A stretch of 64,000 nucleotides of DNA from Candidatus Parcubacteria bacterium (GCA_026395685.1 JAPLYG010000016.1:65035-129034), one strand, 5' to 3'. Positions 15,880 to 52,717 are shown, counted from the stretch's first letter. Numbers and translations are program-made. The notes: generated by a model from the letters alone, not told the origin.

Positions 15880-17496
15880 TTATTTTAAAGACATTGTAGA
15901 TTCAATTGTCGGCGCGTTAAGCTGCTCGGCAAAAGGATCAAAATTATAAACGGTTTCTAAGGGCTCTCCGACGCTATAGCTGATAAAAAATGATTCCGAA
16001 ATATCATTTACCTGAGTTTGCCAATATGGACCGTAATACCTGGTTAAAAAGTTCACATCTTTGATCCAGCGCAGTTTTGCGCCAATGGCGACGACATAGA
16101 CGCGCGGATCTGACTGGATTTTCAGCAGGCTGCCGGGACGATAAGTAACGAGGCCGGCCAGGGGCAATGAAGCCAAAACACTATCATCAACTATTTTAAT
16201 GTCTTTAAAAGTGCCAAACCAGTTGACATAGACTTTTTCATCAGGGAAAACATAGCGTTTGCCGTTATCCGCCAGATAATAAACAGTCGAACTAGCTCCT
16301 TTTATTAATTGATTGCTGGCTGATAAACTCTTAATCACATTAAAAATTTTTAGCGGATCAATCATGCCTTTGCCGATTTTTCCTTTCATGGTTAAATTCT
16401 GGCTGTCGATATTCCTGGTATTTTTCAAAATAAAATCACGGATTTCAATATTGGTAAGTTCGGGATAAGTTGACTTGATCAGGGCAGCAATGCCGGAAAC
16501 AACCGGTGCAGCCAAAGAAGTGCCTGAATAATCTCCTCCATAAAACTCTGACAAGCCCGGAACGGCGGGATTAACTACCTGCAAACCATAAAAATTGGAT
16601 CCGGGCGCAACAATGTCCAGACAAGACGAACCGTAATTAGAATAATAAGCTAATTTATCATCTTCATCAGTTGCACCGACTCCAATTACCATATTGGCGC
16701 CTGTATTTCCATCGTAACAAACCGGATACCTTTTTTCCAGATCTAAATTTATAGGATAAGCAATTTGAACCACATCATGCTGCTTTTCTCTGATTTCCCA
16801 AATGAACTCCTCATTACCGGCGGAAGCAACGATAATCAGTCCGGCATTATAAGCGCGATTAATGGCATTGGCAAAATCACCATCATACGGGATACTGACA
16901 AAACTCATATTTAAAATATCGGCTTTTTTATCAATTGCGTAATTAATAGCCTCAACCACATCGGGAATCGTGCCAGTGCCATACTCGTCCAATACCCGCA
17001 AGGGCATGATTTTTGTACTTTGCCAGGCAATACCGGCAATACCAATAGTATTATTGCCAATTGCTGCGGCGACACCGGCAACCAGGGTGCCATGGTAAAT
17101 TGCCTCTTTTTCACAAGAATTAGTTTCCAGGCAATCCAGAGCATAATCAGGAGCCGGATTATTATCATCGGCAATAAAATCCCAGCCATTAATATCATCA
17201 ATGTAGCCGTTCTTATCATTATCAATGCCGTCACCATCGATTTCAGCCTGATTAACCCAGACATTATCATGTAAATCAGGATGGGAAATATCAATACCCG
17301 AATCAATTACCGCAATAATAGTGTTTTTATGCTTTAAATTCTGTACCCAGATATCCGGCATATTCAAACGGCTCAGATACCATTGCCTGTAATAAAAAGG
17401 GTCATTGGGAGTAAGGCCCTGGGCAAAACAAAAATTAGCCAAAATAAATTGGGCTACTAAAATGACCATAATTACTCGACTTAACCTCATAATCAA
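15880..17496 (-). CDS. Secreted subtilisin-like serine protease (S8) with Ca-binding Asp-rich repeats and a C-terminal unnamed ~110-aa domain
   Basis: Has a signal peptide. The catalytic triad contexts are VIDSGIDISHPDL (Asp), HGTLVAGVAAA (His) and GTSLAAPVVSGIAAL (Ser). A DGDGIDNDKNGYIDDINGWD repeat is present. The C-terminal domain is shared with two surface proteins (see findings). Confidence 0.85.
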   Translation of the reverse strand: MIMRLSRVIMVILVAQFILANFCFAQGLTPNDPFYYRQWYLSRLNMPDIWVQNLKHKNTIIAVIDSGIDISHPDLHDNVWVNQAEIDGDGIDNDKNGYIDDINGWDFIADDNNPAPDYALDCLETNSCEKEAIYHGTLVAGVAAAIGNNTIGIAGIAWQSTKIMPLRVLDEYGTGTIPDVVEAINYAIDKKADILNMSFVSIPYDGDFANAINRAYNAGLIIVASAGNEEFIWEIREKQHDVVQIAYPINLDLEKRYPVCYDGNTGANMVIGVGATDEDDKLAYYSNYGSSCLDIVAPGSNFYGLQVVNPAVPGLSEFYGGDYSGTSLAAPVVSGIAALIKSTYPELTNIEIRDFILKNTRNIDSQNLTMKGKIGKGMIDPLKIFNVIKSLSASNQLIKGASSTVYYLADNGKRYVFPDEKVYVNWFGTFKDIKIVDDSVLASLPLAGLVTYRPGSLLKIQSDPRVYVVAIGAKLRWIKDVNFLTRYYGPYWQTQVNDISESFFISYSVGEPLETVYNFDPFAEQLNAPTIESTMSLK

Positions 17497-18017
17497 TCCG
17501 CTAAAACATTAATTTTAAAAACCGAATGATCCCCTAACTCATAGTTTCGCCATGAACAATATCTAAAAAGAGAAATATCAGATACTAAACCATGACTAAT
17601 TGGGTTATCATGAATATATTTTAATTTTTCTTCAAATTTCTTATGGGAATAAATATTAAAATCGAAAAATCGATGTTTCCATAAAGCTCCGCTACGTTGC
17701 AAATATTTATTGATCTTTCTAGCAGTAACCCCTTTTATTTTTTTGCCTATATAAGAGATACCAAACTCGTTAAGCGAAGATTCCGGGGTATCACCGAATT
17801 TATTCGGTGATCCGTAGGCAAACACTTGACCAATTAATAAATGAACATGATCGGGTACGATAACGAATCCATAAATATCAAAACTTAATTCCGTTCTCAA
17901 TCTATCTAATTCCTCTAAAAATATATCACAGCACTTATCATCTTTAAAAAACGGCACGTTATTTGCAGTTTTAAAAGTGACAAAGTGTATATGACCGGGG
18001 TCATCAAACTTTTCCAT
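17493..18017 (-). CDS. REP-associated tyrosine transposase-like (IS200/IS605 TnpA-like HuH) protein carrying an in-frame REP hairpin insertion
   Basis: The HuH motif is VPDHVHLLI and the catalytic Tyr context is YIHDNPISHGLV. The segment AYGSPNKFGDTPESSLNEFGISY is encoded by a copy of the REP palindrome (ggtatcaccgaatttattcggtgatccg) at about 17775-17835. Confidence 0.7.
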   Translation of the reverse strand: MEKFDDPGHIHFVTFKTANNVPFFKDDKCCDIFLEELDRLRTELSFDIYGFVIVPDHVHLLIGQVFAYGSPNKFGDTPESSLNEFGISYIGKKIKGVTARKINKYLQRSGALWKHRFFDFNIYSHKKFEEKLKYIHDNPISHGLVSDISLFRYCSWRNYELGDHSVFKINVLAD

Positions 18018-18044
18018 TTAAAAATAACATTATTTTTCTCATAA

Positions 18045-18330
18045 GCCTCATCGGGTATCACCGAATTTATTCGGTGATCCGTGCTCGCCCATACAACCCC
18101 GAATGAATTCAGGGTTACCCTGCGGAAGTTGTTCCAATCAAACGCGCAGTCTCGGGGTATCACCGAATTTATTCGGTGATCAGTCCGCGCCCATACAACC
18201 CCGAATGAATTCGGGGTTACCCTGTACAAATTGTTCAGGCAGAACTTTCGGATTGGGGGTATCACCGAATTTATTCGGTGATACGTCCGCGCCCATACAA
18301 CCCCGAATGAATTCGGGGTTACCCCGTGAA
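18045..18330. repeat. REP/BIME-like array of three ~100-bp units of two alternating palindromes
   Basis: Each unit has ggtatcaccgaatttattcggtgat, then gcgcccatacaa, then ccccgaatgaattcggggttaccc. It lies immediately adjacent to the RAYT-like gene. ORFs 17915-18265(-) and 18103-18381(+) are artefacts of this array. Confidence 0.8.
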
Positions 18331-18358
18331 TCCGTACGTGTCCATATAACTAAACTTA

Positions 18359-19717
18359 CTAAAGTCCTTTATCAACATTAATCGACGTGGCTGCATTTTG
18401 TACTGTTATAGGCGAAAAGTCGCTGGTACTGCTAATAGGTAAGCCCACTGTATAATTCACGAAAAACGGATCAGGCACATCTTCCACCAGACTGCCCCAA
18501 TTTGCGCCATAAAGGGCCACTGCAATGGCTTCCGTGGTAACCCAGCGCAAAGTACCCTTTGGGCCGACAGCGTAAACCTTGGGGTCAGTAGTGATTTTGA
18601 CCAATTTAACTCCGGGCTTATAAGTAACATTCCCGCCAATAGTAATAGTACCCAAATCCAAATCTGCGATAGTTACTATATTCAAAAAGTCAGGATACCA
18701 GGTTTTATAAGTATTTAAATTCGGAAAAACATAACGCTTACCGTCATTGCCAAAATAATAAAGCGCCGCGCCAGATGCCTTAATCAAATCCCCTGCTTTA
18801 TAGGCATTTACCGGTGTTGTGGGCGGAACTACAGGAGGAACTGCGATAGCGACATTAACAGTAATTTCTTCGCTTTGGCCTGGGTTACTACCCTGGTCAG
18901 AAGAAGTAACTTTAATCTTATGCTCGCCAGTGGCAATATTTTGCCAGACATATTGCCAGGTATAAGTCGTGTCATCAAAAATTGAAATTACATTTTTCTG
19001 CCCGTCAATATAAATAAAACGGTCTTTAATAGAAGTAGCGCCCTGATCACGAATCATGCCTTTAATCACAAACGAGTCGCTCTCAATTGTCTGGCCAGCC
19101 TGTAAATTTGTAAAGTTTACTTTTGGTCCCAGACTATCAACCGTAGTCAGCCCCACTACCTGCACATTATCATTAACAATATTTGCATTAGTCGGGCCAT
19201 TATTGCCTGAATCCATAAAAATACCCATATCACCCAAATCAAAACTTCCATTAGCATTAGTATCAATTAGTTTGGGAATCTGCATTTGGACAGAGCCTGT
19301 TTTAGTTATATAGGAAGAAATTTCCGCACTGACAAAATATCTCTGGCTGTCAGCAATATTTTCGCTCAAATTATTCAGATACCAGTTTTGCAGAGTGCTA
19401 AAGTAAATTAAATTCCCAATTTTACGGTCAATGCCCATGCCCTGAAAACCGACAGGTCCGTCATCAGCCCACAATGTCAGGTAATCAAGCTGGTACGCGT
19501 CAGTTAAAGTTCCCAAATTCTGCAGGCTTAGAGCTTTTAAAGTATCAGGCCTGGCTGTAACCAAAGTAAAATCAAAAACCAGGTTATCAAATGTACCCCG
19601 AAAAAAAGTATCATAAGGAACTTCAGTCTTAACTATTGATTGCGTGTCAAAAGCCAGGCTAAAATTTACGCTAAATAATACGCCCAAAATCACCAGAAAA
19701 AAAGTAAATTTTTTCAT
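18359..19717 (-). CDS. Secreted surface protein with Ig-like central region and C-terminal unnamed ~110-aa domain
   Basis: The likely start is MKKFTFFLVILGVLFSVNFSLA, a signal peptide. The C-terminal ~120 aa (ASGAALYYFGNDGKRYVFPNLNTYKTWYPDF...TDPKVYAVGPKGTLRWV...) are homologous to the S8 protease C-terminus and to the N-terminus of the 1198-aa protein. Confidence 0.55.
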   Translation of the reverse strand: MKKFTFFLVILGVLFSVNFSLAFDTQSIVKTEVPYDTFFRGTFDNLVFDFTLVTARPDTLKALSLQNLGTLTDAYQLDYLTLWADDGPVGFQGMGIDRKIGNLIYFSTLQNWYLNNLSENIADSQRYFVSAEISSYITKTGSVQMQIPKLIDTNANGSFDLGDMGIFMDSGNNGPTNANIVNDNVQVVGLTTVDSLGPKVNFTNLQAGQTIESDSFVIKGMIRDQGATSIKDRFIYIDGQKNVISIFDDTTYTWQYVWQNIATGEHKIKVTSSDQGSNPGQSEEITVNVAIAVPPVVPPTTPVNAYKAGDLIKASGAALYYFGNDGKRYVFPNLNTYKTWYPDFLNIVTIADLDLGTITIGGNVTYKPGVKLVKITTDPKVYAVGPKGTLRWVTTEAIAVALYGANWGSLVEDVPDPFFVNYTVGLPISSTSDFSPITVQNAATSINVDKGL

Positions 19718-19904
19718 AAAAAACAAGGTTAATTGAATTAATATATCCTGTCTATATTTTACCAAAATTAACCTGTTTCAACAACTAATCCAAAACCTTT
19801 ATTCGGTCATTACCAACCCCGGGGGCTTGGGGGATGAGAACGAAGCTCTTTTGTTCGCTTCAAACTCACACGTCCACTACTTCGATTTATTCAAATTTTT
19901 CTGA

Positions 19905-19990
19905 TTAAATCGCTTTCCCTTCACCCGGGGTCTGGGGGCCGAACTAAGCGCCGTTATCAATGCTACGAACTTTCCATTTGCACTAGCGCA
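19905..19990 (+). ncRNA. Candidate structured small RNA / terminator-containing element (family C, copy 2; partial copy at 19797-19850)
   Basis: The stem ctgggggcc...ggcccccag encloses conserved gaactaagcg / tacgaac / cat.tgcactagcgcattga blocks, followed by a T-rich tract. A perfect AT-rich hairpin ggtacttttt-gctgtc-aaaaagtacc lies at 19995-20020. It is homologous to 30867-30990. Confidence 0.4.
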
Positions 19991-20199
19991 TTGAGGCCCC
20001 CAGCAGTTTTGGCGGTACTTTTTGCTGTCAAAAAGTACCAAATATTCAGGAGATACAATTATTTTGAATTATAAATATTTTTTGCTTTGCACAAATCAAT
20101 TTTACCATATAATTTATTGTTTGAAGTTATATTTTAAGTTGTATTATTAACAATTAAGTTTTTACTTCAAACTCACCTGGCTCATTACAGTGGCGTTTT

Positions 20200-20246
20200 T
20201 TCAAATAACACAAAACCTCCCCTCCCGCAAAAGCGGAAGAGGAGGC
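20200..20246 (-). terminator. Intrinsic terminator downstream of the 1198-aa gene
   Basis: On the minus strand: cctcctcttccgc-tttt-gcgggaggggagg, followed by ttttgtgttatttg. Confidence 0.6.
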
Positions 20247-20288
20247 TTGGACAGTTTTAAGCTGCTGACAAACTTTGAAGGAGTACTA

Positions 20289-23200
20289 TTATGGCTTGAT
20301 CAAAGCTCCACCATATTGAGTGCCTCGGAAGATAATTGTACCTCTTTGGTAATCAGCAGGTGTTTGTTCAATGACACGCCATTTGATATTTCCGTCAGCG
20401 CCATCAGATAATGACATTTGGACTGAATCACCAGCAGTTGTAAGATCAGCACCAGTAGCTAATGAAGTATCCATGTAAACATAAACTGTCTTGGATAGGC
20501 CTGCCGGAATATTATAACTTCCAGCAACAATGGAGCCGAAATCCAATACAACGTCATCAGTATTTGCTGCTAAAGTAGTATCGGTACCTAGAGTTATGCT
20601 TCCATCTTTAAATGTAACAAGTCCAGCAGCACCCGCACCAGCCATATCCAAATGAACGATTACGCAACCTTCATTAGCAACAGCGCAAGCGCCATTATTA
20701 TTACCCTTAGTGAATACCAAGTCATCATTAGCACCAGCAGTAATAGTAAAGCTGCCGATTAGAGTACTTGCACCTGGGACTAAGTTTCCAGAAGGAGTAG
20801 CTGAAGTAGCGACAACCGGGAAATTCTTATAAGTGTAAGCATTTTGGATAGAAGTATTGTTCAATTTGCTAATACCGGTTACGCCAGTATCAGTTAGACC
20901 AAGTAATTTCTTGTTTGAAGAAACACCCAAGACAATGAAATCATTAGTCATAATTTGTTCAGCTGCATTCCAGGTATCAGCAGTGATAAGACCTAATCTT
21001 ACAGCGGCATCATTAATAGCGCCGGCTGCATAAGAGTTAAGGTCAGCACTGATTGTCATTACAGCACTGCTATTGACCGGAACATACATATCCAATTGGC
21101 CGTCAAGAAAAGTTACTGAGCTGACAACGCCAGTTGTTGATATGTCGCCAAGCTTAGTTTCGGTAGTACCGCTGGCATTCTTATAAGAAACTTTAACCTT
21201 AGCGAGATTTATTTCATTAGCAGCTGTTTGTAGTTCGATCTTAGCGCCTTTTACTGTAAATGCTTCGTCAACAGCAGATACTTTGTATTTTGACAATACA
21301 ACATCGCTATTGCCTAAAGTTGCCAAGGAAGCTAATGGAGTGCCGCTATCAACAGCAACCACTACATTACCACTGGTCTTTATGGTCTGCATTACAGTAG
21401 GAGTTCCGGCTAGTCCGTCAAAGTTGAAATTAGTAGCTGACAAAGTAGTTAATAAACTGCCAGTGCTATTTTCAACTTCCAAATCTTCTGAAGGTTTGAT
21501 ACTAACAGCAGTATATTTAGGACCGACTATTGTATTACGATAAGCTAATCTGACTGTTAATTTCTTTTGAGCGCCTGCTGGAATAGCATAAGCTAAATTA
21601 GTGAAATCAGCTCTATAATATTCACCAACCTGCCAAACGCCATCGCCACCTCCAATTTCTATCAGAGTTAAATTGACAGGACCCTTAACTAAAGTAGAGC
21701 CATCATATAAACTAGCTGTTTCAACAAGCAATTTAGCATCTTCATTACCAGTATAAATAACACCAACTCCGCCGCCATCAGTGTCAAAATCAGCATTATC
21801 ATCACCATAAACTCTAGCCTGTAAGCGATTCAATTTTAAGGAATCAGCAATACCGGCAGAAAGGTTAATGCCTAATGCATCACCAGCTTGAGTGCCTCTG
21901 ACAAAAGCAGCTGAGGTTGGAATACCAGCCAAAGTAACTGTTAAGCCAGAAGTTGTAACTGTCTGACTAACACCAGCAACTGAAGATGGGACAATATTGG
22001 TATTTAAGACATATTCAGAAGAATCATTGTCATAAACAAAGCTTGCAGTGCTTAAATCAAAGGTAGCAGCAAGAACAGTGCTATTAGGGGTCAAAGAGTC
22101 AAAATCAGCCTTGATTGCTAAATGTCTGGTTGTGCCAGCAGTTAAATCATAGGTGTCAGATGACCTTAACCAGCAGCCTGCATTCAAGTGAGCAGCAGTT
22201 GTACAAGCCGTTGCACCGCCTTGAGTTGTCTTAAAGCCGCCTAAATCAGCAGCATAAATCAAAGTTGTACCGCTGTCCAAGTCAACTAATTTGACATTCT
22301 TAATGTATGTTTCCAAATCATCATTAGCAGCGCCGGTTGTCTGTACTTTAAGATCTGTCTTTCTGACTGTTGCATTTCTTTCAGAAGAAACATTTACTTT
22401 CAAGATAGCATTGCCGTTTGTGTTTGCTGAGAAAGTAGTAGCTGCCGGGCCTGCGTTTCCTAAAGTAATTTGACCGCCTTGCATAGTAACAGTCTGGTCA
22501 CCAGCTGCATCATATGAAGGGTCAATAATGATATTAGCACCAACGCCATATAGAGCATCCTGGATATTTAAATCAGTTCTTTGGTCAACATAGAATTGAA
22601 CAGTATCGTTGGTTCTGCCGCCTGTAATATCAGCAAAAACAGAGAAATTCTTAACCTGGCCTTTGGCAACTGTAAATGGAGCGCCCAAGACAAAAATTGC
22701 CTTATCGCTAGACATTGCAGCAACTGAAGCCAATTCATAAGAACCCTGCTTTAATTTCAAGTTGGCAATATTGGTGTTTGTCAATTTGCCGCCTTGTCTT
22801 AAAGTAATAGCATAAACAGTTGCATCATTAAGACCAGCGGTAATAGAGAATTTAGCTAATTCTGCACCAGCTGTTCCCAAAGTAACATTCCAGTTAGCTG
22901 AGGTACCTCTGATAGTAACATCAGAAGCTGCAGCATTACCAATAGTCATCAAATTGCCCATTACACCGGCAACAGCATTGCCGTTGATTGACTGAATAGA
23001 CAAAGCATTTTGATCGGTTGCTCTAGCAGCATTATCAGTGACATCAACTTTTGCAGTCAAAGTGACAGAGCCACTGATTGCTAAATTGATGTTGGTGAAA
23101 GTAACTGTATTGGTATCAGAAGAAATGCTTCTGCCAGATGTTAATCTGGTATTGCCATTGTATAGGTAAACAGAGACATAGTCGCTTGCGTTACCTAAAC

Positions 23201-23885
23201 CAGTTCTCTTTAAGATAACTTCATTTAAAGTTCCGCTACCAGAAAGAGTGAATTTCAAGACTGGAACGCCAGTAGCTTTTTGAGCCAAGGTTGCAGCTGC
23301 TGGATTATCAGATGCCAATGAAGCATTGAAAGCAGCCTGGTTGCCGCCGGATAAGCCTTTATCAACATTGATAGAGACAGCGGTAGAAGTAGCAGTTGCA
23401 GGTACAAAATCAGCACATGCATTGATCGGAGCGCCGATTGTGTAATTTACAAAAAATGCGTCTGAAATATCATCAACCTTTGTTCCCCAAGTTGCGCCAT
23501 ATAAGCATTCAGCAATGGCAGCTGTGGTTACCCACCTTAATGTGCCGTTAGCTGCAATAGCGTAGACTTTAGGATCAGTGGTAATTTTACCTAATTTTAC
23601 GCCCGGTCTCATGGTTACATTACCGCCAATTGGAATAGCAGCCAGTTCAGCGTCGGTAATTGTTTTAACAGTTGAAAAATCAGGATACCAGGTCTTGTAT
23701 GTTTTCTCATTTGGGAAAACATATCTTTTTCCGTCAGCTGCGTAGTAATAAACAGCAGCGCCGGAAGCCTTGATCAAGTCGCCAGAAGTAACTGCTGCTT
23801 GAGCGACTGGAACAAATGCTGCTAAGCCGACAGCCCAAAAAATTGTAAGGACTACGACACTAACAGTAAAAATCCTTTTAATCAT
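20289..23885 (-). CDS. Giant secreted surface protein (1198 aa): signal peptide, the unnamed ~110-aa domain, then long Thr/Ser/Gly/Asn-rich beta-rich repeat region
   Basis: The signal peptide is MIKRIFTVSVVVLTIFWAVGLAAFVPVAQA. Then comes ASGAAVYYYAADGKRYVFPNEKTYKTWYPDF...TDPKVYAIAANGTLRWV. The remainder is low-complexity and Ig/beta-sandwich-like. Confidence 0.6.
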   Translation of the reverse strand: MIKRIFTVSVVVLTIFWAVGLAAFVPVAQAAVTSGDLIKASGAAVYYYAADGKRYVFPNEKTYKTWYPDFSTVKTITDAELAAIPIGGNVTMRPGVKLGKITTDPKVYAIAANGTLRWVTTAAIAECLYGATWGTKVDDISDAFFVNYTIGAPINACADFVPATATSTAVSINVDKGLSGGNQAAFNASLASDNPAAATLAQKATGVPVLKFTLSGSGTLNEVILKRTGLGNASDYVSVYLYNGNTRLTSGRSISSDTNTVTFTNINLAISGSVTLTAKVDVTDNAARATDQNALSIQSINGNAVAGVMGNLMTIGNAAASDVTIRGTSANWNVTLGTAGAELAKFSITAGLNDATVYAITLRQGGKLTNTNIANLKLKQGSYELASVAAMSSDKAIFVLGAPFTVAKGQVKNFSVFADITGGRTNDTVQFYVDQRTDLNIQDALYGVGANIIIDPSYDAAGDQTVTMQGGQITLGNAGPAATTFSANTNGNAILKVNVSSERNATVRKTDLKVQTTGAANDDLETYIKNVKLVDLDSGTTLIYAADLGGFKTTQGGATACTTAAHLNAGCWLRSSDTYDLTAGTTRHLAIKADFDSLTPNSTVLAATFDLSTASFVYDNDSSEYVLNTNIVPSSVAGVSQTVTTSGLTVTLAGIPTSAAFVRGTQAGDALGINLSAGIADSLKLNRLQARVYGDDNADFDTDGGGVGVIYTGNEDAKLLVETASLYDGSTLVKGPVNLTLIEIGGGDGVWQVGEYYRADFTNLAYAIPAGAQKKLTVRLAYRNTIVGPKYTAVSIKPSEDLEVENSTGSLLTTLSATNFNFDGLAGTPTVMQTIKTSGNVVVAVDSGTPLASLATLGNSDVVLSKYKVSAVDEAFTVKGAKIELQTAANEINLAKVKVSYKNASGTTETKLGDISTTGVVSSVTFLDGQLDMYVPVNSSAVMTISADLNSYAAGAINDAAVRLGLITADTWNAAEQIMTNDFIVLGVSSNKKLLGLTDTGVTGISKLNNTSIQNAYTYKNFPVVATSATPSGNLVPGASTLIGSFTITAGANDDLVFTKGNNNGACAVANEGCVIVHLDMAGAGAAGLVTFKDGSITLGTDTTLAANTDDVVLDFGSIVAGSYNIPAGLSKTVYVYMDTSLATGADLTTAGDSVQMSLSDGADGNIKWRVIEQTPADYQRGTIIFRGTQYGGALIKP

Positions 23886-24372
23886 ATTAATTTTATCCTT
23901 TCTTAACTCCTGAACAAATTTACGGATAAGAATATAAATTTTACCAAGCCCGAAGGCTCGACGGGGAAAATCCCCTGCCCATAAACTTTCAAAAGCCGAC
24001 CGGATAAATCCGACGTCGACCTTTACTTTTGAATGTTTAGGAACTTATATCCTTATTTAACCCGCGAAATCCATTCAAGAGGGTTAGTTAGCTACCCGAA
24101 ACCCGGATTTAATATCCAGGAGGGTAATTCCTATATACCCCCAAGGCATTTAGGAATCTGCACCAAAGGTGCAAACCCTGACTTTTCACTAAACTTAGTC
24201 AAAAGGCAAGGCCTGAACCGCACAAATAAATTTTAAATATCAAATTTTAAATTTAAATTGTAGGTGGATTGTGTTTAATTTTAAATTTTTAATTTTAAAT
24301 TTTAATTTTTGGAGTTTGTATTTTAATTTACAATAAATCATTTTCCAATATTTAAAACTTATAATTTAAAAT

Positions 24373-24756
24373 TTATAATTTTTCAAGATTCTTTTTATTC
24401 TCAATGGTAATTACGATTTTTGAAAATATCAGGATCAATTCATGAATTTCCTGCATTAATGGCTTGCCTTCAGTCTCTAACCCAGAGTTTGCCATAATAA
24501 CCAATCTTAACCAATATTTCGTTTCTTTTGCTTCTTTTTTACAGATACAAATTTTATTTTTAAAATCTTTCTCAGAACTTGCGCCATTTGCTTCATGATA
24601 ATTCGCTCCCACTTGTTCCTGACCTTACTATTTGTCTAATTATGGGTAAATTTACAGCGGTTTTGGGAATTTTTTTAGCAAATTTTATAATATTTTCGGC
24701 AAATACAATTGTTCTTTCTTCCAAATCAAATTTAAATTCTTTTTCCGACATTTATA
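24373..24756 (-). pseudogene. Four-helix-bundle protein gene (23S rRNA IVS / Avd-like family) disrupted by a frameshift
   Basis: The upstream minus-strand reading frame runs MSEKEFKFDLEERTIVFAENIIKFAKKIPKTAVNLPIIRQIVRSGTSGSELS and stops at about 24601. The family continues in another frame as GANYHEANGASSEKDFKNKICICKKEAKETKYWLRLVIMANSGLETE (ORF 24373-24612). The two halves together match the E-G-x-G-R-x-S-x-K-E-F...E-x-x-Y-W-L pattern of IVS-family proteins. Confidence 0.5.
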
Positions 24757-24836
24757 ATTTAAAATTTATAATTTAAAATTTTCAACTCATTATATTTACT
24801 TGCTATTTGGGATTTGTCTTTTGGTACTTCAATCAA

Positions 24837-26168
24837 TTATTTCTTTTCGGGAACAGTATTTACATTTGCCGGTTCTGGAATAGTTGCAGGCGCAGGTGTT
24901 TCAGCCGCTTGTGGCTTTGGCGCTTCCAGATATTCTTTATTTGCCTCAATAACGTCTTCAGCTAATTCAATGATATCATTGGCATCTTTTAATTTGGAGT
25001 ATGACCATAAAACTTCTTTAGTTATCAAATAGCCCTTGGATTCAAGTAATAATTTCTGAGCATCTGCTAATTTCACCTTAATTTCAGCTGGTGATGGTAA
25101 AACCACTTCAGGCGCCTTTACTTCAATTGGCGTTACATCAGTAGGCGGATTTAAATTAATATTTTCGATAGTTTCAACTAATGCTTCAACAGGTGTTTCT
25201 GCTGGCTTAACTTCGGTTGTAGCAGCAGGGGTTTCAGTCCCTGTCTCAATCGCAGTTGCCGCAGCTGCAGCGGCTGCTTTTTCTGCTTCAGCCTTGGCTT
25301 TGGCTTCTTCCGCTGCCTTAGCTTTAGCCAAATCATCAGCTATTTTTTTATTGACAATAATCTTATCTAAATCTTCATTATCTCTTCCTAAGCGATAATT
25401 TAAATCAGCCATTTTCTTTTCCAGACTTTGAATCACGGTATCCAGGGTCACTTCCTTACTGCCTGCCTTATATTCATTAATAATCATATCCAAAGCTTTT
25501 TCTGCCATGGCCTTAGAGGAGGTAATCGCTTCAAGAGTAGCTTCGGTCTTTTTCAAATCAGGATTTTTATCTTTTTGTTGGGTTAAAATCTCAACATAAT
25601 TTTTAGTCTTTTCATCCACTAATTTGGCAACTTTGACAGCGACATTACTGTCTGTTTTTTCCAGTTTAGCCAGACTGGTTTTCATATTATTGATGCTTTC
25701 CTGAAATTTCTGCAAAGAAACCTGGACATTTTCCTTTTGCTTGTCATCATTGACCGGCTGATCAGTGATTTTCTGCAGTTCCTCAAGCCTGCGTTCAGCA
25801 AAGGCTATTTCTAAATTAGCCTTTTTTTCATCATTATTGGCCAGATTGATTTTCATTCTTTCAGAAGTGATTTTAATAGGATACAAAAAATCGCCGGGCA
25901 AACTATTTTTTGTTGCGCCGACGGTCATAACATAACTGCCTAAAACTATGCCAAAAACTAATATAAAACCAGCTACCGGCTTATATAAAGAAACTGTTAA
26001 TCGTTTAAAAAACAAGGAGGACCAATTGATTTTATTCTGAACAGTGTCACTGGTCTGCGCCTTGATTTGAGACAGCAAAATATCCCGATTGAGCTGTTTC
26101 CAGGCTGCATCAGGTTTAACTTCATTTTTCAGATTATTCAATTGTTTTAAGAAGTCACGCTTGCGCAT
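24837..26168 (-). CDS. Putative anti-sigma factor (single-TM, DUF5667-like periplasmic coiled-coil region; Ala/Glu/Lys/Pro-rich C-terminus)
   Basis: It lies immediately downstream of the ECF sigma gene and is co-oriented with it. It has a cytoplasmic N-terminus, one TM helix (LYKPVAGFILVFGIVLGSYVMTV) and then LANNDEKKANLEIAFAERRLEELQ repeats. Confidence 0.5.
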   Translation of the reverse strand: MRKRDFLKQLNNLKNEVKPDAAWKQLNRDILLSQIKAQTSDTVQNKINWSSLFFKRLTVSLYKPVAGFILVFGIVLGSYVMTVGATKNSLPGDFLYPIKITSERMKINLANNDEKKANLEIAFAERRLEELQKITDQPVNDDKQKENVQVSLQKFQESINNMKTSLAKLEKTDSNVAVKVAKLVDEKTKNYVEILTQQKDKNPDLKKTEATLEAITSSKAMAEKALDMIINEYKAGSKEVTLDTVIQSLEKKMADLNYRLGRDNEDLDKIIVNKKIADDLAKAKAAEEAKAKAEAEKAAAAAAATAIETGTETPAATTEVKPAETPVEALVETIENINLNPPTDVTPIEVKAPEVVLPSPAEIKVKLADAQKLLLESKGYLITKEVLWSYSKLKDANDIIELAEDVIEANKEYLEAPKPQAAETPAPATIPEPANVNTVPEKK

Positions 26169-26326
26169 GTATTTAATTGAGTTTAAAGTTGAAAGTCAAA
26201 AGTTATAAAGTTGGGAGTTGATTATATTTTGGAATATTTTAACCACAGATTAAATTCACAGATAGCACTGAATTTCGAATTCATCACTCATCTATATAAT
26301 CTGCATCTGCAAGAAAAAATCAGTGT

Positions 26327-26893
26327 TTATTTTTCGCCCATTAGCTCCCGCAAGGCATTTGTTGCCCGATAAAGAATGACTCTGACAGCTCCATTTTTCT
26401 TTTCCACTATCTCAGCGATCTCTCCAATTGATAATCCGTCAACATATCGTAAAATAATAATTTCCCGATAATCATCTTTTAAACCCTGGAGCTTATCCTG
26501 TATTTTTTCCAGCTGAATCTTACTATCAAGTTCATCCTGGCCTTGAGTAATCATTATATTATCAACCCGCAGATTTTCTCCCCCGCTGTCCAGAGCATCC
26601 AAAGAAACTCCTTTATGCGCTGCTTTACGATAATAATCAATTACCAAGTTACGGGCTACTTTATATAAGTAAGCATTTAGGTTGGAAATCTCTTTGCCGC
26701 TGATAATATATTCCCAGGTCTTCAAAAACACCTCCGAGGTTAAATCTTGGGCTTCTTCCTTACTATTTATCTTAAAAAAAACAAAGCGATAAATCTTATC
26801 CACATAGAGGTCGTAAATCTTACTGTAGGCCTCGGGATCTTTATTTCTCGCTTTAAATAGTAAATATTTTTCTGTAATTATATTAGCTGTCAT
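26327..26893 (-). CDS. RNA polymerase sigma-70 factor, ECF subfamily
   Basis: Region 2 reads EAQDLTSEVFLKTWEYI...YLYKVARNLVIDYYR. Region 4 has the HTH LSIGEIAEIVEKKNGAVRVILYRATNALRE. Confidence 0.85.
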   Translation of the reverse strand: MTANIITEKYLLFKARNKDPEAYSKIYDLYVDKIYRFVFFKINSKEEAQDLTSEVFLKTWEYIISGKEISNLNAYLYKVARNLVIDYYRKAAHKGVSLDALDSGGENLRVDNIMITQGQDELDSKIQLEKIQDKLQGLKDDYREIIILRYVDGLSIGEIAEIVEKKNGAVRVILYRATNALRELMGEK

Positions 26894-26895
26894 TT

Positions 26896-26928
26896 TATAA
26901 GACGTGTGAATTAAAAAAATGTTACAAC
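26896..26928 (-). promoter_or_regulatory. Candidate ECF-type autoregulatory promoter (AAC-N16-CGTCT) just upstream of the sigma gene
   Basis: Minus-strand sequence reads tgtaaca-tttttttaattcaca-cgtcttataaa-ATG. The GTAACA / CGTCT spacing is as in ECF sigma promoters. The -10 is only about 6 nt from the ATG, suggesting a leaderless transcript. Confidence 0.35.
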
Positions 26929-27214
26929 CATTATAACATCTTTTAACGTGTTTTTATTATAACATGGAAACAAATATTGTTCAATGGCTTTTACTCCTTG
27001 CCAATAGCCAAATTTTGGGACAAATTGTGCATATCCTGTAACCTTGCTTTATTGAGTAAAAACCCTAAAAATAAAGGATTATGTTCTAATAATAGACACC
27101 TGCTAAGAAATAAGCTTTTCCAGCAAATCCTAGCTTTTGCTGTAATATTTTGGAGATAACGAATACCTCTTGTCAACCTTATCACTTTCTTGCTATATTA
27201 CCATTGAACCTTAA

Positions 27215-27369
27215 TTTTGTCCACACTAATCTAGACAAAGTAAATAGGCTGAGGGTTAAGGTAATGATGCTGGTAAGTGAATTAGGCAAAGTGAATAGTA
27301 AAAATTACCAATTACCTAACCCTTACATTTACCAGCATCCTAACACTAACACCATTCACCAACTTATAT
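27215..27369. repeat. Family-B intergenic imperfect palindrome (copy B1)
   Basis: The left arm is gagggttaaggtaatgatgctggtaagtgaattaggcaaagtgaatag. The right arm is ccaattacctaacccttacatttaccagcatcctaacactaacaccattcacc. It abuts the ATG of the 27370 gene. Confidence 0.6.
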
Positions 27370-27663
27370 ATGCCTGATATCAATCAAATAAGAGTCTCAA
27401 TCTCAGAAGCTGCACGACTTTTTGGCGTAGATGCCAAAACAATCCGCCGGGCAATCAAGACCCAGGAGATCCGCTATGTGGTTGTGCGTGGCCGCTATAA
27501 GCTTAACTTTGAAAGCCTGATCAAGTGGTCACAGCGCAAAACAACCGTACGCAATAAAAGCAATAATCAGGGCATTGGCCAGTATGTTGGCCAGTGGAAG
27601 ATCAGTAATAAGCTTTACTCACCCAATCCGCCTAAGGATACTGAATTAGAAAATAAAAAATAA
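27370..27663 (+). CDS. Small helix-turn-helix DNA-binding protein (excisionase/MerR-like HTH_17-type)
   Basis: 97 aa. The opening VSISEAARLFGVDAKTIRRAIKTQEIRYVVVRGRYK is a classic Xis-like winged HTH. Confidence 0.5.
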   Translation: MPDINQIRVSISEAARLFGVDAKTIRRAIKTQEIRYVVVRGRYKLNFESLIKWSQRKTTVRNKSNNQGIGQYVGQWKISNKLYSPNPPKDTELENKK

Positions 27664-27800
27664 TTGAAATAAATAATCAATACTCAATCATCAAACAATA
27701 TCAAATATCTAATAACAAAATTCTAAACTTGTTTGGTAATTTGATATTATAGTTTAGTAATTGTTTGATTATCCCGAAGGGATCCCTTTGGGATTGATGA
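27664..27800. repeat. Family-A intergenic palindromic element (copy A2)
   Basis: The left part is aaataatcaatactcaatcatcaaacaatatcaaat...ctaaac, the centre is gtttagtaatt, and the right part is attgtttgattatc...gattgatgattgatgtttgatgatt. Confidence 0.6.
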
Positions 27801-27821
27801 TTGATGTTTGATGATTAAAAA

Positions 27822-27862
27822 ATAACAAAACCCCGCGTCCTTTCGGAACACGGGGTCTTGTT
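27822..27862. terminator. Intrinsic terminator between convergent genes
   Basis: Hairpin aaaaccccgcgtcctttcggaacacggggtcttgttttg. Confidence 0.5.
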
Positions 27863-27876
27863 TTGTATCTAATTAG

Positions 27877-29046
27877 TTATGCACTTTTAATTTCCATCTG
27901 GGTAACAGTTTTCTGATTCTTAGAGCTTAAAACTGAATTATAGGCATCAATTGTCTTTTTAACAATGTTCTCCCAATTATATTCAATTTCAGATCGATAC
28001 TGTAATTTTTCACCCATTTCCTGAACAACTTCAGGATGGTTCAATAAATACTGCAATTTCTGGCTTAAATCCGTAATGCTTTTACTGATAAAAGTTAAGC
28101 CGATTTCAGAAACCGCTTCCCTGTTAGGCGCGATATCACTGACTAATACTCCTTTGCCATAGCTCATTGCTTCCAATAAAGCGATTGATAAGCCTTCAGC
28201 TTCTGAAGGCTGCACAAATAAATAGGCATTAGAATATAATTCAGCTAAAGCTGTACCGGTTTGGTTGCCGGTAAAAATGATATTAGGATTGTCACCAGCC
28301 AAAGATTTCAAATACTGCACATAATCTTCAGTAAAATTGGCATCGCCAACAATTACTAATTTTTTGTCAGTATTTTTCAAGATGGAATAAGCTCTGATTA
28401 AATAATGCAAGCCTTTATGGCGAATCAGCCTGGAAACGGCCAAAATATAGTCATTACCGACTAATCCCCATTTAGCAGTGATTATTTGAGGTTTAATAGC
28501 AGCTGGTTGGTTTACACCATTAGGAATATAATCCAATTCGCCATTGAATTCCTGGCTATGAACCTGGGACTGATATTGAGAAACAGCAATGCACTTATCA
28601 GACCATTTAACAGAAATGTAAGCGCCTAAGCCTAAAAATTTTCTAGCCCAAACACCCCACTTTTTATGTTTCCTGTCGTCAGAGTGAAAAGTAGAAATGA
28701 CTTTGGCAGATCTTTTAAATAATTTAGGAATCCATAACAAACTGGAAGGTCCGATTGCATGATAATGAATAATATCAGCATCACGTCTTAAGACATCCAA
28801 GCTGGCTAACAAAGTATGAGAGATTGCATCCAAATGCTTAGTTTTAATGCTGGGCAAATGGATTAATTTTACGCCCTTATATTCAGTTAAACCTTTAGGA
28901 GTAAAATAATTTCTGCAATACACAAAAACTTCGTGACCTTCTTTCACTAATCTGGTAGCTAATTCCTCAACGTGGCGTTCAACGCCACCGGAAATAGCCG
29001 GTATTCCTTTTTGTCCGATAAAATAAATCTTCATATTTTTATACAA
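27877..29046 (-). CDS. Glycosyltransferase family 4
   Basis: Shows MKIYFIGQKGIPAISGGVERHVEELATRL and EAEGLSIALLEAMSYGKGVLVSDI. Confidence 0.8.
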   Translation of the reverse strand: MYKNMKIYFIGQKGIPAISGGVERHVEELATRLVKEGHEVFVYCRNYFTPKGLTEYKGVKLIHLPSIKTKHLDAISHTLLASLDVLRRDADIIHYHAIGPSSLLWIPKLFKRSAKVISTFHSDDRKHKKWGVWARKFLGLGAYISVKWSDKCIAVSQYQSQVHSQEFNGELDYIPNGVNQPAAIKPQIITAKWGLVGNDYILAVSRLIRHKGLHYLIRAYSILKNTDKKLVIVGDANFTEDYVQYLKSLAGDNPNIIFTGNQTGTALAELYSNAYLFVQPSEAEGLSIALLEAMSYGKGVLVSDIAPNREAVSEIGLTFISKSITDLSQKLQYLLNHPEVVQEMGEKLQYRSEIEYNWENIVKKTIDAYNSVLSSKNQKTVTQMEIKSA

Positions 29047-29289
29047 TATTAGATGAATTAATCCCCAAAGTACTAGGAAATTAAGACATTGGGGATTTAA
29101 TATTTAATATTGTATATTAGCATAAATTTGCTTCTTTGTCAACTATTTATTCTTAATTTAAGTAGCAAATGGCTAATTTTAGCCTTTTAAATCAATAAAT
29201 AAGGCAAAAATCACCTCTTGGGATTAATTACCTTACTATAATCTTTCTCCTATTGTCAAGTTTATTTTTTATTATATTTTGGGCTATAT

Positions 29290-29540
29290 AGGCGCGGACT
29301 AATCACCGAATGAATTCGGTAATACCCGAACAATCACCTGCGGGGTAACCCCGAATTTATTCGGGGTTGTATGGGCGCGGACTGATCACCGAATGAATTC
29401 GGTGATACCCGGAGACTGCGCGTTTGCATGGAACAACTTCCGTGGGGTAACCCCGAATTTATTCGGGGTTGTATGGGCAAGGACGAATCACCGAATGAAT
29501 TCGGTGATACCCCAAAAATTCCCGCGGGGTTACCCCGAAA
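29290..29540. repeat. Second REP/BIME-like array, about 2.5 units, in inverted orientation relative to 18045-18330
   Basis: Alternating (a/g)atcaccgaatgaattcggt(g/a)ata and ggggtaaccccgaatttattcggggttgtatgggcgcggac. It is the reverse complement of the unit architecture at 18045-18330. Confidence 0.8.
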
Positions 29541-29603
29541 AAAAGCGTTTTAATTGTTAATATTTTATTTTGAAAACATTTACAAATAGCGTATAATTAA
29601 ACC

Positions 29604-30755: not shown

Positions 30756-30866
30756 ATGATCTCTTATAATAGGATACCTACGGCAAAATAGCTGGCGGTA
30801 TTTATGTTACAGGCTACGACCGCGATAGCGGTTAATTAAAACTAACGAACCTAAACGTTTTTATCC

Positions 30867-30965
30867 CTCCCTGGGGGCTTGGGGGTGCGAACTAAGCGTC
30901 AAGTTCAAAGTTACGAACAAACCATCTGCACTAGCGCATTGAGCACCCCCAAAACTTTTTTGATT
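30867..30965 (+). ncRNA. Candidate structured small RNA / terminator-containing element (family C, copy 3)
   Basis: The stem cttgggggtgc...gcacccccaa encloses gaactaagcg / tacgaac / catctgcactagcgcattga. It is followed by aaaactttttttg and the AT hairpin ttactttttt-agttat-aaaaaagtaa (30966-30992). The stem changes are compensatory relative to copy 2. Confidence 0.4.
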
Positions 30966-30989
30966 ACTTTTTTAGTTATAAAAAAGTAA

Positions 30990-41703: not shown

Positions 41704-42086
41704 GGGGATGATCGGACTCGATAGATCGATCTTTATCTAAGGCTGCAAGCCGAGCTGCTATCATGCTCGATAAACTGTTAGCCACTTTATAAGTGCAAAC
41801 AAATTTTTAAGCGGAGTTAAAGCAGCTTTTGCTTTTAACTTTGCTCCTGTTGCCGCTTAATCGCCGCAACCATCTGGACCTTTAACGCCTGATAAAAGGC
41901 TCCGGGTGTCAAAACATCAGGCTCGCCAAGTAAGGAGCGCCTTTGCCAGCTTGGCCAAAAAATTAAGGCATGATATAAGAATTTTGTCGGGATTAACATC
42001 TTATATTTAAATTTAACCCCGAACAAGCTTGTAGACGCCTGGCCGAAGACTTTCTAGACGCGGGTTCAATTCCCGCCATCTCCACA
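41704..42086 (+). ncRNA. ssrA: tmRNA (SsrA)
   Basis: The 5' end is ggggatgatcggactcgat. The 3' tRNA-like domain has gacgcgggttcaattcccgccatctcc plus a discriminator a; CCA is not encoded. The internal tag ORF ...GVKAAFAFNFAPVAA ends in gcc-gct-taa (AA-stop). It is adjacent to smpB. Confidence 0.8.
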
Positions 42087-42206
42087 TAAATTTTTACTTC
42101 GTAAAAATTTGGGTACTTAGTAGTTTGTACTTTGTATTTTGGGAAGAAGTAAAAATTTATCCTACACTACAAAATACACATACTCACACAAAAATAAAAA
42201 ATATGT

Positions 42207-51682: not shown

Positions 51683-51795
51683 CCCAGGACTCCCCTTGCC
51701 AAGGTAATAAAATATTGCTATAATATTCTCACAAGGTCTAAAAACCTTATTTTTAATTTATAAATATTCCTAAGTTTTAACTTTTGAATTAATTT

Positions 51796-51870
51796 GGAGT
51801 GGTAGCTCAGTTTGGTTAGAGCGCCGCCCTGTCACGGCGGAGGTCGCGGGTTCGAGCCCCGTCCACTCCG
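51796..51870 (+). tRNA. tRNA-Asp (GTC)
   Basis: Cloverleaf as follows. Acceptor ggagtgg / ccactcc + g. D-arm gctc-agtttggtt-agagc. Anticodon arm ccgcc-ctGTCac-ggcgg. T-arm gcggg-ttcgagc-cccgt. CCA is not encoded. Confidence 0.9.
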
Positions 51871-52580
51871 AACCAGAAGCACGCAATATCATTTTATTGC
51901 GTGTTTTCGTTTACCCCGTACCGAGCTTCGCTCTGGTACGGGGTTTGGTGAGGCTTCGGTTCGGAGTAGGCCAGTGCCGAACGAACTAGGATATTAAATT
52001 TAAAAATAAACGCCACTCCGAACCAGAAGCACGCAATATCATTTTATTGCGTGTTTTCGTTTACCCCGTACCGAGCTTCGCTCTGGTACGGGGTTTGGTG
52101 AGGCTTCGGTTCGGAGTAGGCCAGTGCCGAACGAACATAGTGAGTTCTGGTTCTGGCCACTCCGTTATTCTTTATCTCTGAGCTCCCTGCTATAATATGT
52201 ATATAATAATTATTATTATAAAATTTATGTACTTTGTTTATTACTTACAAAGCAAAATAAGGCCAACCCAATTTTACGTTGGCTATACAACAAAGTTAGA
52301 TATAAGGATTAGCGACCATAATAAGGGTTTATCCGCTTCAACAAAACCTTATCGACCTTGGGACTTAATTTTTTACGAAGCATATAAAGATAAAAAAGAT
52401 GCCAAAAGGCGTGAAAAGTACTTAAAGACGACCAAAGGACGTAAAGGCTTAAAGTTAATGTTGAGATATTCAATTCCAAAGTAAACGCCAATCCGAACCA
52501 GAAGCACGCAATATCATTTTATTGCGTGTTTTCGTTTACCCCGTACCGAGCTTCGCTCTGGTACGGGGTTTGGCGAGGCT
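51863..52580. repeat. Three copies of a ~125-bp hairpin-rich repeat that begins with the tRNA-Asp 3' end (copies at 51863-51993, 52011-52140, 52488-52580)
   Basis: The unit is ccactccgaaccagaagcacgcaatatcattttattgcgtgttttcgtttaccccgtaccgagcttcgctctggtacggggtttggtgaggcttcggttcggagtaggccagtgccgaacgaac. Copy 1 overlaps the tRNA 3' acceptor strand. Copies 2 and 3 carry cgccac/atccgaacc. Confidence 0.8.
52227..52484 (+). CDS. GIY-YIG nuclease-family protein (YhbQ/UPF0213-like)
   Basis: Reads FYVGYTTKLDIRISDHNKGLSASTKPYRPWDLIFYEAYKDKKDAKRREKYLKTTKGRKGLK, matching the GIY-YIG core. The track start at 52197 is in an A/T run, so ATG 52227 is preferred. Confidence 0.65.
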   Translation: MYFVYYLQSKIRPTQFYVGYTTKLDIRISDHNKGLSASTKPYRPWDLIFYEAYKDKKDAKRREKYLKTTKGRKGLKLMLRYSIPK

Positions 52581-52717
52581 AATGTTGAAATATTCAATAA
52601 TAAAATAAGTCCACTCTGCTCCAACAAAAAGACAATCATTATCGGGTGTTTTCTTGTCTACAACAATTTAAAAAACCCCATTGATGTTATATCTCCGGGG
52701 TTGGTTGTGTCGGGGGA

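Follow-up and report, generated by a model that had tools for sequence, protein, structure and literature searches.

REP hairpins inside and beside a REP-associated tyrosine transposase gene in a Parcubacteria genome and its relatives

A 64,000-nucleotide stretch of a Candidatus Parcubacteria genome (GCA_026395685.1 JAPLYG010000016.1:65035-129034), termed here the window, carries one gene for a REP-associated tyrosine transposase (RAYT), where REP denotes the repetitive extragenic palindromic sequence. The window also has 12 complete hairpins of 9-10 bp with a 5' GGGGTA tag. These are found in three places: within the RAYT coding sequence itself, in an array beside the gene (array A), and in a second array 11 kb away (array B). 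The locations are listed in Table 1. Tagged hairpins are also present in frame in the RAYT genes of related bacteria of the candidate phyla radiation (CPR).

Table 1. Positions of the RAYT gene, its hairpins and other elements; coordinates refer to the window unless a locus is named.
Feature	Position	Strand	Remarks
RAYT gene, 174 aa	17493-18017	-	NCBIfam REP_Tyr_transpos; Pfam Y1_Tnp; 4ER8
HUH motif (His57-Val-His59 in PDHVHLLI)	17841-17849	-	H57 and H59 invariant; D-H-V-H at 17841-17852
Catalytic Tyr134 (in KYIHDNP)	17616-17618	-	Invariant column Y134; aligns with YIYINP region of E. coli TnpA-REP
In-gene REP monomer, GGGGTA + TCACCGAAT-TT-ATTCGGTGA	17784-17815	+	94-97% identical to first REP of array A units
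Decayed relic of second in-gene hairpin (CTTAACGAGTTTGGT, L-N-E-F-G)	17760-17774	-	Aligns with PNEFG segment (CCGAATGAATTCGG) of the intact in-gene doublets of closest homologues
Array A, three tandem 69-nt inverted REP doublets	18052-18324	+	Units 18052-18120, 18154-18222, 18256-18324; 33-nt spacers; period 102 nt
Array B, inverted match to array A	29296-29540	+	Single REP 29296-29327; doublets 29342-29410 and 29444-29512; 29296-29516 without the truncated REP start at about 29524-29540
S8 peptidase, about 145-aa domain at C-terminus	15880-17496	-	
Big_7 protein, about 145-aa domain at C-terminus	18359-19765	-	
1198-aa protein, about 145-aa domain at N-terminus	20289-23885	-	
tmRNA gene	41704-42087		
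Second RAYT-like family	L125 7687-8265; L123 6845-7336, 8166-8657		Also at loci L135, L136, L139, L146

The RAYT gene and the hairpins of the window

The RAYT protein is identical to NCBI protein NTZ49_04580 of a Candidatus Parcubacteria metagenome-assembled genome (MAG). It scores 92.3 bits against the NCBIfam model for REP-associated transposases (NF047646; cut-off 80), and the match comes in two stretches because an insert splits it. Against the IS200 model (NF033573) the score is 20.2 bits, far below the cut-off of 55, and the Pfam match is to Y1_Tnp. When a profile of the clade is compared with the PDB, the best relative is 4ER8, the Escherichia coli TnpA-REP (E = 1.2e-10), with IS200-type TnpAs at about 2e-3. 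H57, H59, Y134, N138 and P139 are invariant in both alignments made (A1 and A2), and the single catalytic Tyr is in a Y..NP helix; the catalytic residue of the E. coli enzyme is Y115 (PMC3479197). These comparisons support the assignment of the gene as a RAYT and not an ordinary IS200 TnpA. It is present once in the window and its stop codon overlaps the start of the downstream S8 peptidase gene. There was no match to phages and all plasmid matches were distant, below 27% identity; a phage or plasmid origin was rejected.

The in-gene REP is 32 nt in length and is read on the - strand, in frame, as G-S-P-N-K-F-G-D-T-P. It folds at -10.1 kcal/mol (z = -4.3). It is the one intact hairpin of the gene, and it is accompanied by one decayed relic.

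Array A is situated between the stop codon of a gene for a Big_7 surface protein and the RAYT start, and begins 35 nt upstream of the RAYT start codon. Each of its units reads GGGGTA-TCACCGAAT-TT-ATTCGGTGA-linker CCG(C/T)GCCCATACAA-CCCCGAAT-GA-ATTCGGGG-TTACCC, such that the 69-nt doublets have the outer tags GGGGTA...TACCC. On the 3' side of the RAYT gene, where the S8 gene overlaps, there is no REP. Array A is probably transcribed, since a scan for consensus sites placed no sigma-70-like site between the Big_7 stop and the RAYT start.

Array B is found between divergent GT4 and GT9 genes, with promoter-like sites on either side at 29142-29114(-) and 29570-29597(+). Loop bases apart, its sequence is that of array A in reverse complement, and the match of 170 nt at 92% identity spans one of the 33-nt inter-unit spacers. 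Within the 64-kb window, each palindrome pattern is matched 11-12 times, compared with 0.01-0.02 matches expected by chance. When folded as single-stranded DNA, each hairpin has a 9-bp stem and a 4-nt loop; the first CC-type hairpin has one stem mismatch. The z scores are -4.2 to -4.8 for the units and -7.8 for the whole array, and the inter-unit spacers do not fold.

The loops follow a strict strand rule. The six hairpins tagged on the + strand all have TT, and the six tagged on the - strand all have TC, which appears as GA on the + strand. Each array is uniform internally, yet arrays A and B share a spacer. Because of this rule, array B departs from an exact inversion of array A. A simple deamination model, with C-to-T changes on the exposed strand, was rejected as an explanation of the rule, as the + strand is C-rich and the direction is therefore wrong.

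The tags of the window hairpins are GGGGTA-T and GGGGTA-A, i.e. GTAT and GTAA, and the in-gene doublets of the closest relatives read GGGTAG...CTACCC. In other respects the window elements can be compared with the definition of REPs. They are palindromic hairpins, they form inverted doublets, and they flank the gene, on one side. REPs, and the inverted REP doublets termed REPINs (REP doublets forming hairpins), are expected to be extragenic and dispersed in high copy number, whereas here one copy is in frame in the RAYT gene and the 12 hairpins of the 64-kb window lie in three clusters.

A preliminary description, made from the window sequence without database searches, had read this locus as a REP/RAYT system, and the main elements of that reading are sustained by the RAYT assignment and by tagged REP doublets arranged as in REPINs or bacterial interspersed mosaic elements (BIMEs). 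The proposed HuH gene at 17493-18017 does have the HuH motif and catalytic Tyr, and the comparison of RAYT with IS200 TnpA that had been suggested, given above, places it with the RAYTs. The array of three two-palindrome units of about 100 bp, given as 18045-18330, has its limits at 18052 and 18324; the hairpin copy seen in frame within the transposase gene (SPNKFGD) is confirmed, as is the second, reverse-complementary array at 29290-29540 with swapped central dinucleotides. The suggested folding was carried out with the z scores above, and the CPR-type host that was surmised agrees with the identical protein in the Parcubacteria MAG. With respect to the linkers, which were described as conserved, this is correct for the linker inside the unit but not for the 33-nt spacers between units, which are not conserved within an array.

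In-frame REP doublets in related RAYT genes

All 16 of the closest RAYT homologues (40-60% identical) have an insert at one of two sites in the protein, and the hosts named are Parcubacteria, Buchananbacteria and Patescibacteria. In the alignment, the insert is absent from more distant, non-CPR RAYT homologues. Site 1 is directly after the HUH motif and separates the HUH strand from the following helix. Site 2 comes after a conserved Ser-Gly, between that helix and the W..FYDFN strand. In nucleotide sequence, all inserts that were checked are tagged REP doublets of the form GGGTAG-hairpin-linker-hairpin-CTACCC, and the peptide motifs PNEFG, SPNLFG and EHLL...EQML are translated palindromes. 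Each site has one fixed reading frame (site 1, xGG GTA Gxx; site 2, GGT AGC), and it is in these two frames that the TAG stop is avoided.

A structure model of the window RAYT leaves residues 66-83 unstructured, as a loop that joins the HUH strand to the helix after it, the insert having no secondary structure and a predicted local distance difference test score (pLDDT) below 50. Site 2 falls in the next loop. The mean pLDDT of the model is moderate, 64, and the model was used only to place the inserts in loops. On this placement the insert loops would be permissive.

With 80 further loci from metagenomes added, a census was made of 69 distinct RAYT reading frames from CPR-type contigs, that of the window among them, in a total of 544 kb; the sequence surveyed consists of 6-10 kb of RAYT flanks together with the 64-kb window. 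A perfect hairpin of at least 7 bp is present between HUH and DFN in 61 of the 69 reading frames. Copies of a locus's own hairpin are much less common outside the gene: they are found within 300 bp at 18 of 69 loci and beyond 300 bp at two, the window (array B) and locus L141. Many RAYT loci have no hairpin copy outside the gene. The density of tagged hairpins is 2.09/kb in the gene, 0.78/kb within 300 bp and 0.041/kb further out. Some family representatives have inserts at both sites or tandem in-frame arrays (P0030, P0031 and P0114, which are examples only, as the motif pattern parsed 48 of 150 library representatives). Decayed inserts are kept as plain coding sequence, as in the LNEFG relic of the window and in L202/L203. 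On the sequences compared, in-gene REP residence is a property of the whole CPR RAYT clade and not an accident of the window genome. Hairpins inside the RAYT as a rule across a gene group are unusual for REP/RAYT systems.

The palindromes are maintained. Among occurrences of GGTA/TACC, 97 of 170 adjoin a hairpin compared with 18 of 276 random positions. Stem mismatches are found at 11 of 860 positions, i.e. the stems are about 99% paired, even though identity between the proteins is only 30-60% and the hairpin sequences change from one lineage to another. These mismatches show no excess of G-T over A-C. Changes on both sides were seen at 8 of 8 stem pairs, in a set that had been selected for being hairpins, and this covariation count is partly circular; the unbiased figures for maintenance are the tag-anchored count and the census.

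RAYT alleles at two syntenic loci are mosaic. The 3' third of the gene is nearly identical in L117 (6001-6531) and L126 (10001-10609), with two differences in about 170 nt. In the 5' parts conservation is only partial, and between the middles, which have different REP doublets at different sites, there is no relation. This suggests recombination of a cassette consisting of the N-terminal part plus the REPIN.

The hairpin core extends well beyond this clade. When one genome per species was scanned for CCGAAT-NN-ATTCGG doublets, at least 116 loci (L001-L116) were matched, against roughly 0.1 expected by our own estimate. These loci are found in Gamma- and Betaproteobacteria, Bacteroidota, Chloroflexota, Acidobacteriota, Armatimonadota, Cloacimonadota and others. 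Among the matches listed, the doublets are usually GTAGGGCCGAATTCATTCGGCC, and the usual REP form is GTAGGGCCGAAT-TC/TT-ATTCGGCC with a GTAG tag, often in inverted doublets or tandem runs. TT and TC loops are both present in this wider class. A RAYT of Cloacimonas that is 36% identical to that of the window has CCGAAT REPs on both sides and a clean reading frame. By their core, CCGAAT-TY-ATTCGG, the window hairpins can be placed in a widespread GTAG-tagged REP class, and since this core occurs across many phyla the system is not confined to CPR bacteria. The core with a 5' GTAG was observed in seven phyla or more, and a single genome often has it at many loci, as do an Emticicia MAG and a Pseudomonas MAG.

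Several CPR loci also have, at a distance of about 2 kb from the first family, a second and distinct RAYT-like (Y1 HUH) family (Table 1). Its members have an in-frame GTAG palindrome, TGTAGAGAC...GTCTCTACA, directly after HUH, which is read as CRDRVYPVST or RRDAIYRVST. This family was looked for in the 64-kb window and is absent there.

Chromosomal setting and other elements

The position of the RAYT gene in the chromosome is conserved. At locus L125 (GCA_028714455.1), genes for an HTH_17 protein, an extracytoplasmic function (ECF) sigma factor, a DUF5667 protein, a giant protein, a Big_7 protein, the RAYT and an S8 peptidase have the order and orientation of the window from 27663 to 15880. 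Protein identities between the two loci are 41-72%, and that of the RAYTs is 42%. The succession Big_7-RAYT-S8 is also present in L141, and Big_7-RAYT in L121; synteny with L125 and L141 is kept at 42-54% protein identity. L117/L118 and L126 share another arrangement, Cpn60 ... pyruvate kinase-RAYT-zinc-ribbon protein-giant protein, and despite this shared neighbourhood the doublet is at site 1 in L117/L118 and at site 2 in L126.

Arrays are absent from L125. In the window, the GC skew of the + strand is negative throughout and its sign is kept across the 11 kb between the arrays. Because L125 has the same gene order and orientation without arrays, this segment is, on comparison of the two loci, ancestral chromosome and not a cargo "module". 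By the same kind of comparison, the RAYT appears to be chromosomally fixed, i.e. domesticated.

Three window proteins have in common a domain of about 145 amino acids with no Pfam match, at 40-69% identity. The preliminary description noted an unnamed domain shared by two surface proteins; the sharing is real, but there are three carriers, one of which is the S8 peptidase. The domain is likewise shared between proteins in L125, L137, L141 and L121. The window also has a truncated reading frame for a 23S rRNA intervening-sequence protein (Avd-like) at 24373-24612(-), which covers profile positions 43-101 of 106. Full-length Avd-like copies are found a few kb from RAYTs in L117 (4071-4412) and L124 (12971-13330), and in L125 a gene for a reverse transcriptase (RVT_1) is situated at 9 kb from the RAYT.

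A GC-rich element of about 70-86 nt is present in the window in two copies that are 73% identical (19916-20001 and 30864-30949). The closing stem shows compensating changes, GGGGGCC/GGCCCCC in one copy and GGGGGTGC/GCACCCCC in the other, with CGAACTAAGCG and CTGCACTAGCGCATTGAG as conserved cores. An AT-rich hairpin of 11-12 bp comes after each copy (20016-20041 and 30964-30989). The element has no Rfam match and no copy in the 206 loci fetched. Perhaps it represents an undescribed small RNA or regulatory element. Other repeats of the window are a 300-nt tandem pair with 91% identity (49473-50105), a 124-nt family of three copies, two identical and one 78% identical (51863-52611), which adjoins a tRNA-Asp gene (51795-51871), and, at five sites (10578, 27665, 53555, 60025 and 63945), intergenic families that are AT-rich and about 50-100 nt in length.

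Interpretation of the in-gene hairpins

The best solved relative of the window enzyme, E. coli TnpA-REP with its REP/BIME partners (4ER8; PMC3479197), is likewise a Y1 HUH enzyme. Its hairpins also have about 20 nt and a 5' GTA(G) tag, and they are arranged in alternating orientation with conserved linkers and in tandem clusters, which those of the window resemble in a BIME-2-like manner. Its gene is single-copy and chromosomally fixed; the 64 kb of the window have a single copy. For binding and cleavage, TnpA-REP requires both the 5' GTAG and the hairpin, and the enzyme cuts at CT dinucleotides on single-stranded DNA (PMC3479197). The differences are that the window has a hairpin inside the coding sequence, a GTAT/GTAA tag, REPs on one side of the gene only, and 12 complete hairpins in three clusters in 64 kb, whereas E. 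coli REPs number in the hundreds and are dispersed.

The REPIN-RAYT systems of Pseudomonas and enterobacteria (Bertels & Rainey; PMC3116915, PMC5581495, bioRxiv 10.1101/2021.07.10.451892) are similar in having inverted doublets together with a vertically inherited, single-copy RAYT, and in that the hairpin sequence diversifies along with the RAYT lineage. In these papers, REPINs are extragenic, typically have hundreds of copies, and are found in about 10% of bacteria in association with Group 2/3 RAYTs (bioRxiv 10.1101/2021.07.10.451892; PMC5581495). Doublets of the CPR clade, in contrast, are mainly inside and right beside the RAYT gene, and are found in Patescibacteria.

The favoured interpretation, to which we assign a probability of roughly 65%, is that the Parcubacteria genome has a domesticated RAYT with its cognate GTAG-class REP hairpins, in inverted doublets as in REPINs and BIME-2 clusters, and that the in-gene copy is a protected one. 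The example of E. coli TnpA-REP suggests an enzyme that would bind the hairpin and its 5' tag on single-stranded DNA, cut, and rejoin nearby. Cutting and rejoining would copy or correct REP doublets over short distances, preferentially in cis. In gene-dense genomes with almost no neutral intergenic space, hairpins would persist beside the RAYT gene and inside it, where the two surface loops (sites 1 and 2) may tolerate 15-50 extra residues and carry the hairpins in frame. The in-gene copy would then be a protected master copy, the source from which flanking copies are made or corrected. It would be protected because its loss risks the enzyme and because it is always co-inherited with the enzyme. 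Array A may have arisen when a 102-nt unit upstream of the gene was amplified in tandem, and array B may derive from part of array A, duplicated in inverted form to a place 11 kb away that has two divergent promoters on either side.

Several points weigh against this interpretation. A simple inverted duplication does not account for the strand-specific TT and TC loops. The window tags are GTAT and GTAA, not GTAG, and each base of GTAG is needed for cleavage in E. coli (PMC3479197). The survey covered 6-10 kb of RAYT flanks and the 64-kb window, and a dispersed REP population may be present elsewhere in these genomes. As the alleles of L117 and L126 are mosaic, the turnover of inserts may be by recombination and not transposition. 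In addition, an in-gene palindrome that is near-universal and near-perfect may have a hairpin function of its own and may not be a tolerated passenger.

This last point leads one to ask if the in-gene hairpin is a functional cis element, an obligatory substrate or an autoregulatory site, whose binding and nicking, or whose mRNA hairpin, would limit RAYT expression or start local DNA processing. Rolling-circle HUH initiators are known that have the nick site in their own gene, as in phiX174 gene A and pT181 repC. These are alike in that the target of an HUH enzyme is inside its own coding sequence, which favours cis action; they differ in that they are replication origins of autonomous replicons, whereas here the RAYT is chromosomal and there is no indication of replication initiation. 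Near-universal retention of the in-gene hairpin, a perfect one in 61 of the 69 frames, favours a cis function, as do stems that are almost fully paired despite deep divergence of the genes. An in-gene GTAG palindrome is held at two unrelated sites and also in the second RAYT-like family (L125, L123), many loci have no copy outside the gene, and some reading frames, such as P0031 and P0114, have tandem in-frame arrays. However, decayed inserts survive as coding sequence, and orthologous loci have the insert at different sites, both of which fit passive retention. The variable site speaks against a single fixed regulatory geometry, and as G-T is not in excess over A-C in the stem mismatches, an RNA-level role is without sign. 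We consider a cis function possible, though on the unlikely side. A more far-reaching proposal, which we put forward only tentatively, is that in this Patescibacteria clade the REPIN-RAYT system may have collapsed into one gene: the substrate hairpin would be an obligate in-frame resident, the REPIN population would be about one, and cis action, whether autoregulation or local DNA processing, would keep the palindrome.

In another explanation, the inverted arrays are recombination sites that invert the 11-kb segment with its surface-protein and ECF sigma genes, leading to phase variation, or that let the RAYT move the segment. The preliminary description had considered the arrays capable of such inversion or mobilization. 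The segment does encode surface proteins, it is bracketed by the 170-nt inverted repeat at 92% identity, and each doublet presents a hairpin in either orientation. But L125, which has no arrays, keeps this gene order, and this orientation with respect to RAYT and S8; the GC skew does not change sign, and remote copies are nearly absent from the 68 other RAYT loci. All of this is contrary to it, and no serine or tyrosine recombinase is evident among the ten segment reading frames scanned with Pfam. Inversion or mobilization of the segment is improbable on these grounds.

An active insertion sequence of the IS200/IS605 type, with the hairpins as left and right ends, would account for the Y1 HUH chemistry, the Y1_Tnp match and hairpins adjoining the gene. 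It is very hard to reconcile with the IS200 model score of 20 bits against a cut-off of 55, a syntenic position kept in genomes whose RAYTs are only 42% identical, a stop codon overlapping the next gene, the lack of a 3' hairpin and the single copy in 64 kb. Despite a regular 102-nt period and variable 33-nt intervals, a CRISPR-like nature of the arrays, already doubted in the preliminary description, is scarcely credible, as the repeat unit is a 69-nt composite of two hairpins present in only two or three units, one "spacer" is shared, inverted, between arrays A and B, the array hairpin is also inside the RAYT gene, there is no match to a CRISPR repeat family or other Rfam family, and Pfam finds no cas domains in the neighbouring genes scanned.

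With respect to the favoured interpretation of a domesticated RAYT with cognate hairpins, in-frame REPs as such have precedents. GTAG-tagged REPs and REP dimers are found in frame in unrelated genes (uvrA and other repair genes), as are the Rickettsia palindromic elements (Di Nocera et al. 2013, PMC3733652). Those too are translated as extra loops, and selection removes disruptive insertions. Here, in contrast, the host gene is the RAYT itself, and the arrangement is conserved across a clade at two defined loops. A text search of five supplementary files of PMC3733652 for "transposase" gave no occurrence. We have found no report of REPs inside RAYT reading frames or of RAYTs in Patescibacteria; coverage of the literature was incomplete and this is absence of evidence only. 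REP/RAYT systems and in-frame REPs in other genes are known; what is new is the clade-wide in-frame residence of REP doublets in the RAYT.

The CPR RAYT clade departs from the description of REPINs in two ways, the location within the gene and the near lack of copies elsewhere, and it shows a route by which such elements survive in streamlined genomes. A practical consequence is that the in-gene inserts split profile matches and can mislead the annotation of these genes. RAYTs are among the most widespread domesticated transposases, and we know of no established cellular role for them. The findings extend REP/RAYT biology to Patescibacteria and provide a minimal pair, an enzyme and its putative substrate, with which RAYT function can be tested by biochemistry and genetics. 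If the collapse into one gene and the action in cis were true, the clade would be a minimal natural system for learning what RAYTs do.

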